64,000 bases of DNA from positions 156,848 through 220,847 of the forward strand of contig CAWDPM010000018.1 in NCBI GenBank assembly GCA_963804185.1, given 5' to 3'. The position numbers and the translations under genes were made by a program. Positions 52,795 to 53,103 of this stretch are shown here, one piece after another; positions within the stretch are counted from its first letter, which is position 1; every line of letters begins with the position of its first letter. The notes under the pieces are model-generated. The model was not told where the DNA came from and did not search any database. It worked only from the letters and a program-made list of their open reading frames with translations. This stretch comes from an uncultured Candidatus Rokubacteria bacterium (GTDB lineage Bacteria > Methylomirabilota > Methylomirabilia > Rokubacteriales > DASRDR01).

Positions 52795-53103
52795 CTAGGC
52801 GGGCTGGGGCGTCCGCCGCGCCCCACGGGGCCGCGTGGCGCCCGAGAGTGTGGCCGCGAGTTGCGCCCGGAGGGCGGCGTTCTCGGCGAGGACGGCTTCC
52901 TGGGAGATGACCGCGGCCGTCCGTGACACTGGTGGTAGCTGCGCTACCCACTCCGAGTACCTCAGGTAGGTGTCGATCGAGGCCACCACGGCTCGTGCCT
53001 CGACCGTGATCAGGTCGATGCCCATGAGAAGTCCCTTGTCGAGGACCCGGTCGAGCAGGTCGACAAGACCGGTGCCCCGCTGTCCCGCTAGATCGGTCCG
53101 CAC
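52795..53103 (-). CDS. GvpA/GvpJ-family small protein (gas vesicle structural protein homologue)
   Basis: [41 protein letters not shown] matches the GvpA core (L.dvLdriLDkG.v..........iEaR.viASveTYLryaEa). The beta-hairpin region is about 9 aa shorter than in canonical GvpA. The 45-aa C-terminal extension is GvpJ-like. Its stop abuts the kinase start. Confidence 0.7.
   Translation of the reverse strand: [102 protein letters not shown]

Follow-up and report, generated by a model that had tools for sequence, protein, structure and literature searches.

The fold of the gas-vesicle protein GvpA and its turn residues have been described, and its β-hairpin forms the core of the ribs (PMC9994262). 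In Halobacterium, GvpA, GvpF, GvpG, GvpJ, GvpK, GvpL and GvpM are each essential, and GvpJ can spare only its 5 C-terminal residues (PMC9501494). Against this background we examined an open reading frame (ORF) of 102 aa with a GTG start, located at 52795-53103 (- strand) of the window, by which we mean the whole 64-kb stretch of DNA that was analyzed. An earlier note had read this ORF as a GvpA/J-family protein with a hairpin region 9 residues short, and had considered this consistent with a role outside gas vesicles. We consider it highly probable that the ORF is instead a hybrid, pseudogene-like relic rather than a novel type of protein: the scar of a deletion in a gas-vesicle cluster that is eroding in a soil bacterium resembling Rokubacteria/Methylomirabilota.

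The frame of the window copy is unbroken from GTG to TAG, and the ORF exhibits a coding-like codon-position bias (GC3 0.83, in a window of 69% G+C). Its match to the Pfam Gas_vesicle family (PF00741; gathering cutoff 25 bits) reached 27.2 bits (E = 4e-6), with ORF residues 13-41 (29 aa) covering profile positions 2-39 (38 positions), so that 9 positions are absent. When searched with phmmer against solved structures, the ORF matched only GvpA (7R1C, E = 1.4e-8; 8GBS, E = 3.9e-8), and both alignments contained a single 9-residue gap directly after LDKGL(L), equivalent to residues ~26-34 of B. megaterium GvpA2. A MAFFT alignment with 28 relatives kept the same 9-column gap and gave the ORF no full-length hairpin. 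These searches bear out the family assignment and the missing 9 residues, and the gap that the earlier note had placed by eye was placed rightly. Alignment to GvpA2 adds one refinement, namely that β1 is lost rather than both strands being shortened.

By alignment to 7R1C and 8GBS and by the multiple alignment, the ORF does not have the complete coil-α1-β1-β2-α2-coil fold with a full β-hairpin. The trimming is not symmetrical: nearly all of strand β1, ahead of the V35-G36-I37 turn, is missing, and β2 is left partnerless, in keeping with the expectation in the earlier note that canonical rib packing would fail. The NCBIfam GvpA model NF006874 (cutoff 100 bits) likewise separated the fusion ORF, which scored 54.1 and failed, from the intact orthologue on the related contig L004, which scored 111.9 and passed. 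In structure prediction, proposed earlier as a check, AlphaFold2 with a 49-sequence alignment modelled the fusion without any strand, as one long helix (residues 12-54) followed by a helical tail (pLDDT 69), and a full-length control (P0031) was likewise all-helical (pLDDT 64). The AlphaFold2 monomer misses the known hairpin even in this full-length control and is therefore no evidence either way; our structural argument is the alignment to 7R1C and 8GBS.

The ORF ends in a tail of 45 aa that is Ala/Leu-rich and Arg-ended (RRRR; ending RRTPQPA). The tail that the earlier note had pointed out is therefore real, but it is not special to this ORF: it was common to essentially all of the best 120 of 2359 homologues and to all full-length orthologues. 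A long C-terminal tail is thus a normal trait of this GvpA clade. The clade extension (window 52795-52965, - strand) consists of a predicted helix with a near-invariant motif followed by an Arg-rich end, and an AENEALRR..L motif in the GvpJ-like paralogue resembles this tail motif. Where a cluster has no GvpC, the extension may provide GvpA with a coiled-coil or basic tail of its own.

Comparison with L004 resolved the ORF into two parental genes. L004 is a 521-kb contig that is syntenic with the window, with genes for a luciferase-like protein, UDG and topoisomerase IB upstream and a MEDS-domain gene downstream, and its gvp cluster is complete. In blastn alignments, window positions 53261-53024 corresponded to L004 9468-9708 at 80% identity (the upstream region/5' UTR and first 26 codons of a gvpJ-like gene), and window positions 53022-52700 corresponded to L004 10106-10479 (gvpA from codon 36 to its stop, and on into the kinase gene that follows). 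The ORF is therefore made up of a gvpJ-derived part (53024-53103, - strand), which holds the start codon and the helix α1 codons, and a gvpA-derived part (52795-53022, - strand), which encodes strand β2, helix α2 and the clade-typical C-terminal tail. Between them, at 53023 (- strand), lies the junction CTCAT/G/GGCATCGAC, where a lone base within the Met27 codon is unaligned between the two blastn segments. The N-terminus of the fusion is identical to that of the GvpJ-like proteins over 24 of 24 aa (L004) and 25 of 25 aa (L089), and the GvpA N-terminus differs.

Relative to L004, ~396 bp (132 codons) are absent, comprising the remainder of gvpJ, gvpA codons 1-35 and the 3 bp that separate the two genes. 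The fusion has accordingly been stripped of the GvpJ-type stretch past helix α1 (IAGDI..LTIRIRL..DKAQEIGLDWW) and of the C-terminal half of that protein. The two halves are joined in frame, 9 codons out of register, and it is for this reason that the ORF seems to have a shortened hairpin. The junction reads CTC-ATG-GGC-ATC-GAC, compared to CTC-ATC-GCG-GG. in parental gvpJ and GTC-GGG-ATC-GAC in parental gvpA, and a brief TCG/GGG microhomology is a plausible site of its origin. In relatives, namely L004, L089 and upwards of 70 genome loci, the gvpJ-like gene and gvpA are separate; the breakpoints are mapped at nucleotide level, and the gvpA core is full length in all 73 related genome loci in which it could be read. 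The ORF at 52795-53103 is thus a gvpJ-gvpA chimera created by a ~396-bp in-frame deletion.

A protein search yielded 2359 homologues, the best 120 of which were inspected. The gap was common to only three of these 120 (P0001, P0002 and P0029; 85-90% identity to the query); two others (P0037 and P0048) carry a separate inversion, and the remainder are full length save for scattered small indels. The identical junction occurs in seven independent contigs (the window, L002, L003, L005, L006, L007 and L008) that come from at least 6 samples and two archives, each with its own substitutions; because of this breadth we conclude that the junction is real and derives from a single ancestral event. It persists over lineages with dS up to ~0.09. 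All junction copies were found through protein-identity look-ups, and exact-pattern scans for the junction GGGACYTCTCATGGGCATCGACCTGAT in genome and metagenome contig collections gave no match.

Several sister copies of the fusion are disabled. L005-7 are frameshifted twice, by a +1 insertion among the codons for helix 1 and by a -1 deletion within the tail, and also carry an A36G substitution; L003 has a -1 frameshift deletion in the tail and S42L; and L002 carries R19G and L25P at invariant positions of the LDRVLDKGL motif. All indels of the sister copies fall in or just 5' of the 309-nt ORF, with none in the adjoining ~0.8 kb of the kinase gene. Over the 62-codon core of the fusion, Nei-Gojobori omega within the clade was 0.44-1.27, values that rest on 3-12 substitutions per pair only. 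The intact gvpA core is nearly invariant over 72 loci, with omega of ~0.03-0.17 at a median dS of ~1.

In the window, the fusion ORF heads an operon on the - strand that continues with three intact genes: a PAS-PAS-HisKA-HATPase histidine kinase (50650-52791, - strand; Pfam), a receiver-only response regulator (50198-50653, - strand; Pfam Response_reg, 97 bits) and a GvpF/L-family gene (49210-50193, - strand; Pfam GvpL_GvpF, 255 bits). The true start of GvpF is likely the GTG at 50193, judging from the L004 and L089 orthologues. Beyond gvpF only remnants are left, and then a MEDS-domain gene follows on the other strand; such an absence of further gvp genes is unusual at a gas-vesicle locus. 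The first remnant is gvpG, with its first 12 codons only (VIILDTLLVGGL; 49177-49213, - strand; tblastn, blastn breakpoint and translation). It abuts an internal ~200-bp fragment of a two-domain ArsA-like ATPase gene (48975-49176, - strand; blastn to L004 14979-15181 at 82% identity, translation ...AIAAVRAAFPGRPIWLVPEL), which is followed by the last 34 codons and stop of gvpK (48873-48977, - strand; tblastn at 94% to L004 GvpK residues 40-73, blastn and translation).

Compared to L004, two deletions lie 3' of gvpF, of 970 bp and 3132 bp. They account for the loss of gvpG, of the greater part of the ArsA-like gene and of gvpK, and of two gvpF/L genes together with the small A/J/M (gvpS/M-like) gene. 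The 64-kb window contains no other gvp gene. The accessory set gvpF, G, J, K, L and M/S is therefore incomplete in the window, with one gvpF/L intact, gvpG and gvpK reduced to stubs, and the others absent. The remnants also leave a residual ORF of 81 codons (window 48968-49213, - strand), in which gvpG codons 1-12 are followed by out-of-frame filler and an in-frame ArsA-like piece (..AIAAVRAAFPGRPIWLVPELS); this second, accidental hybrid ORF could be mis-annotated as a gene. On the other side of the cluster, window 53601-56817 and L089 carry isochorismatase-like, PafA/Pup-ligase-family and DUF421/YetF genes that are not at this place in L004 (7841-9608). This block, which sits next to the decayed gvp cluster on the side of topoisomerase IB, probably reflects a local insertion or rearrangement.

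A sister lineage with a different history is L089, which is 93.7% identical to the window across gvpF, the receiver and kinase genes and the 3' end of gvpA. As in the window, genes for isochorismatase, Pup ligase and DUF421 flank it at one end, and genes for DPBB and Exo_endo_phos at the other. L089 retains a separate gvpJ-like gene, and its gvpA (L089:9534-9845, P0037) is disrupted by a ~60-nt inversion and a 27-nt deletion. The same inversion is present in P0048, and thus in two independent assemblies; its product, too, is 9 aa shorter, by coincidence. L089 also has a gvpG-gvpK fusion, but its breakpoints differ from those of the window (L004 14158, 14608-14730 and 18245). We considered whether the window fusion descended from an inverted gvpA of the L089 type and rejected this, given that GGC-ATC (G-I) is forward in the window and inverted in L089. 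A common origin of the gvpG-gvpK deletions in the window and L089 was rejected as well, with breakpoints that differ and no simple further deletion that converts either state into the other. Because neither state is derivable from the other, erosion of the gvp cluster has been repeated and independent in the window clade and in L089.

The three surviving genes show another pattern of change. The kinase has 86% aa identity to that of L004 (omega 0.19) and no indels in four sister contigs; omega was 0.27-0.34 for the receiver and 0.22-0.24 for GvpF in comparisons with L004 and L089. Between the window and L089 specifically, omega was 0.28 for the kinase, 0.34 for the receiver and 0.24 for GvpF, versus 0.18-0.28 for flanking genes and 0.57 for the gvpA-derived part. 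Kinase, receiver and GvpF are thus under purifying selection in two decayed lineages, and the locus is not wholly dead. Either the losses around them are very recent or the three genes have a use of their own. To see whether constraint on the kinase is relaxed in the fusion clade, we compared its N-terminal region: omega was 0.38-0.50 there and 0.22-0.32 in the other comparisons of that region, but the ~8 nonsynonymous and 7 synonymous changes are too few to support a conclusion.

The intact cluster was recovered from relatives. A genome scan with the window GvpF produced 560 confirmed loci, with a top identity of 86%; the best 80 of the 560 (L009-L088) belong to soil metagenome-assembled genomes (MAGs) labelled Rokubacteria/Rokuibacteriota/Methylomirabilota, Vicinamibacterales/Acidobacteriota and Myxococcales/Myxococcota. 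In L001 (a 1.6-Mb contig) and L004 the order is GvpJ-like (121-129 aa), GvpA (111-127 aa), PAS kinase, receiver, GvpF/L, GvpG, two-domain ArsA-like ATPase, GvpF/L, a small A/J/M protein (80 aa), GvpF/L and GvpK, or J-A-[PAS kinase]-[receiver]-F-G-[ArsA-like]-F/L-S/M-F/L-K in shorthand for the ancestral state, over ~9 kb (L004:9608-18412; L001:9276-18211). Searches by tblastn with the L004 proteins placed the same cluster in almost all of the ~80 loci that reach far enough. No GvpN, GvpC or GvpO was recognised in the conserved soil-MAG cluster. In the searchable literature we found no description of this cluster type in Rokubacteria or Acidobacteria, or of a gvp cluster with a kinase and regulator; the intact cluster, common across soil MAGs and containing both an ArsA-like ATPase and a two-component system, is apparently undescribed.

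The region 5' of the fusion was inherited with the gvpJ-derived part (53104-53261, - strand). It retains 80% identity to L004 and includes a stretch resembling a Shine-Dalgarno site (AAAGGGG) as well as a TGGCACCGCATCGGG motif at ~53201-53187; the pattern TGGCA[CT]-N5-TTGCT occurs at the equivalent upstream place in many relatives. Around 20 of 70 related loci (L031, L036, L042-L047, L054, L057, L067, L073, L083 and L084 carry it) have this canonical sigma-54 -24/-12 motif 5' of the gvpJ-like gene, ~-116 to -133 from its helix-1 codons. The sigma-54-type site is TGGCACCGCATTGG in L004 and TGGCACCGCATCGG in the window (~53187-53201, - strand), where the -12 element is degenerate, and an NtrC-type sigma-54 activator is encoded in L001 two genes 5' of the gvp cluster. 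These motifs suggest that the gvp cluster is sigma-54-dependent. A scan of window 52700-53650 for sigma-70 promoters and terminators found none, and no sigma-70 consensus. Given its start codon, Shine-Dalgarno-like stretch and conserved upstream region, the fusion ORF may still be transcribed and translated.

We propose that the ancestor of the window lineage would have carried gvpJ-like and gvpA genes in tandem at the head of the operon described above. An illegitimate, out-of-register deletion of ~396 bp then joined gvpJ codon 26 (..LDKGLL) to gvpA codon 36, by chance in frame, to give a hybrid product with helix α1 from GvpJ and β2, α2 and tail from GvpA, without strand β1; since that strand is missing, the rib-polymerising β-hairpin cannot form. 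Separate deletions removed gvpG past codon 12, most of the ArsA-like gene, one gvpF/L, the gvpS/M-like gene, the second gvpF/L and most of gvpK. On established knowledge of these proteins, the locus cannot make gas vesicles, because the fusion is without β1 and other gvp genes are deleted. The fusion ORF is drifting, with kinase, receiver and GvpF still maintained. We infer the relic status of the window copy from its anatomy, its context and its sister copies; the fusion protein is probably without function, and gas-vesicle formation has presumably been lost in this organism.

One alternative is that the hairpin-less GvpJ/A hybrid has been neofunctionalised and works with GvpF and the kinase and receiver; it might be a membrane or scaffold protein with amphipathic helices, or it might feed into the kinase. 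The intact, in-frame ORF of the window, an identical protein in a second sample, the conserved upstream signals, and the constraint on kinase, receiver and GvpF in both decayed lineages (omega 0.24-0.34, like flanking genes) would all fit such a role. We nevertheless regard it as improbable, in view of the frameshifts that destroy the ORF in L005-7, the altered tail in L003, the changes to invariant R19 and L25 in L002, and an omega of ~0.4-1.3 for the fusion itself. No wider family with the fusion architecture emerged among the best 120 of 2359 homologues or the 73 readable gvpA loci. L089, moreover, has wrecked its gvpA in another way yet retains kinase, receiver and GvpF, so these three do not need the fusion. 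A more specific proposal, that the hybrid is expressed at the head of an operon that has survived (fusion, PAS kinase, receiver and GvpF) and has been co-opted together with GvpF for a non-vesicle function, strikes us as marginally less probable still; if true, it would mean that a shell protein of gas vesicles lost its hairpin and was then put to another use. The non-gas-vesicle role put forward in the earlier note thus survives only in its negative half: the ORF is an unlikely vesicle builder, but its origin as a deletion fusion, the deletion of gvpG-gvpK, the sister frameshifts and the changed invariant residues speak against an evolved alternative role.

Two further readings were weighed. 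Should the genome hold a second, intact gas-vesicle cluster elsewhere, the fusion might be a minor accessory component of the A/J/M type, acting for instance at nucleation, the step for which the scarce GvpJ, GvpM and GvpS paralogues are believed to serve (PMC9994262). We judge this very unlikely: the best 80 of the 560 related loci each come from a different assembly, with no genome having two such clusters; strand β1 and the whole GvpJ-specific C-terminal half are gone, from a protein that tolerates almost no change (PMC9501494); and sister copies are frameshifted. An assembly artefact, in which an assembler collapsed two similar tandem genes into one, is hardly credible. The gvpJ and gvpA genes do have in common a 52-nt stretch, 81% identical (the LDRVLDKG codons), that could confuse an assembler, but the junction is out of register with that stretch and recurs unchanged in the seven independently assembled contigs, with each contig's own substitutions. 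A deletion relic in an eroding cluster is the reading that we retain.

This reading removes a tempting false lead: the odd architecture, which could pass for a new GvpA-like family with a short hairpin and a function outside vesicles, results from a deletion junction. It also provides a nucleotide-resolved snapshot of an eroding gas-vesicle cluster, in which gvpA was disabled and gvpG-gvpK deleted by different events in two sister lineages, and in which selection continued to act on one GvpF and on the two-component system within the cluster. As a further case of gene decay in a known system its novelty is low, and the intact ancestral cluster is the more interesting by-product.

The fusion can be placed among described proteins on both sides of its junction. 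Like GvpA (B. megaterium GvpA2, 7R1C; A. flos-aquae GvpA, 8GBS), it has the LDRVLDKG helix-1 motif, its residues 28-56 align to β2 and α2, and the part 3' of the junction is orthologous to bona fide GvpA. It differs from GvpA in that residues ~26-34 (GvpA2 numbering) are missing, its N-terminus is not GvpA-derived and its score is below the NCBIfam cutoff; in addition, the fusion and its own clade have a helical, basic tail of 45 aa, whereas cyanobacterial and Bacillus GvpA have none. With the GvpJ/GvpM/GvpS paralogues it has in common its first 26 codons and upstream region, whose orthologue is the GvpJ-like gene that opens the cluster (100% aa identity with both L004 and L089). Unlike GvpJ, everything after helix α1 (..IAGDIRISLAEVELLTIRIRLIVCSIDKAQEIGLDWW.. 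and tail) is deleted. At the level of the cluster, the relatives resemble the actinomycete type (Streptomyces coelicolor gvpOAFG-JLSK; PMC9501494) in having neither gvpC nor gvpN and in belonging to soil bacteria. They depart from it in the PAS kinase and receiver between gvpA and gvpF, in the two-domain ArsA-like ATPase after gvpG, and in having no recognised gvpO; in the window, most of the relatives' cluster is deleted.

Deletions and insertions in gvp clusters are known to abolish gas vesicles in Halobacterium Vac- mutants and in Microcystis gvp mutants. The window agrees with these in that structural rearrangement has inactivated a gvp cluster no longer held by selection. No insertion sequences were seen at the window deletion junctions. 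The window differs from the Halobacterium and Microcystis mutants in its route, which comprised several small illegitimate deletions, one of which gave an in-frame hybrid, with an inversion in the sister lineage.
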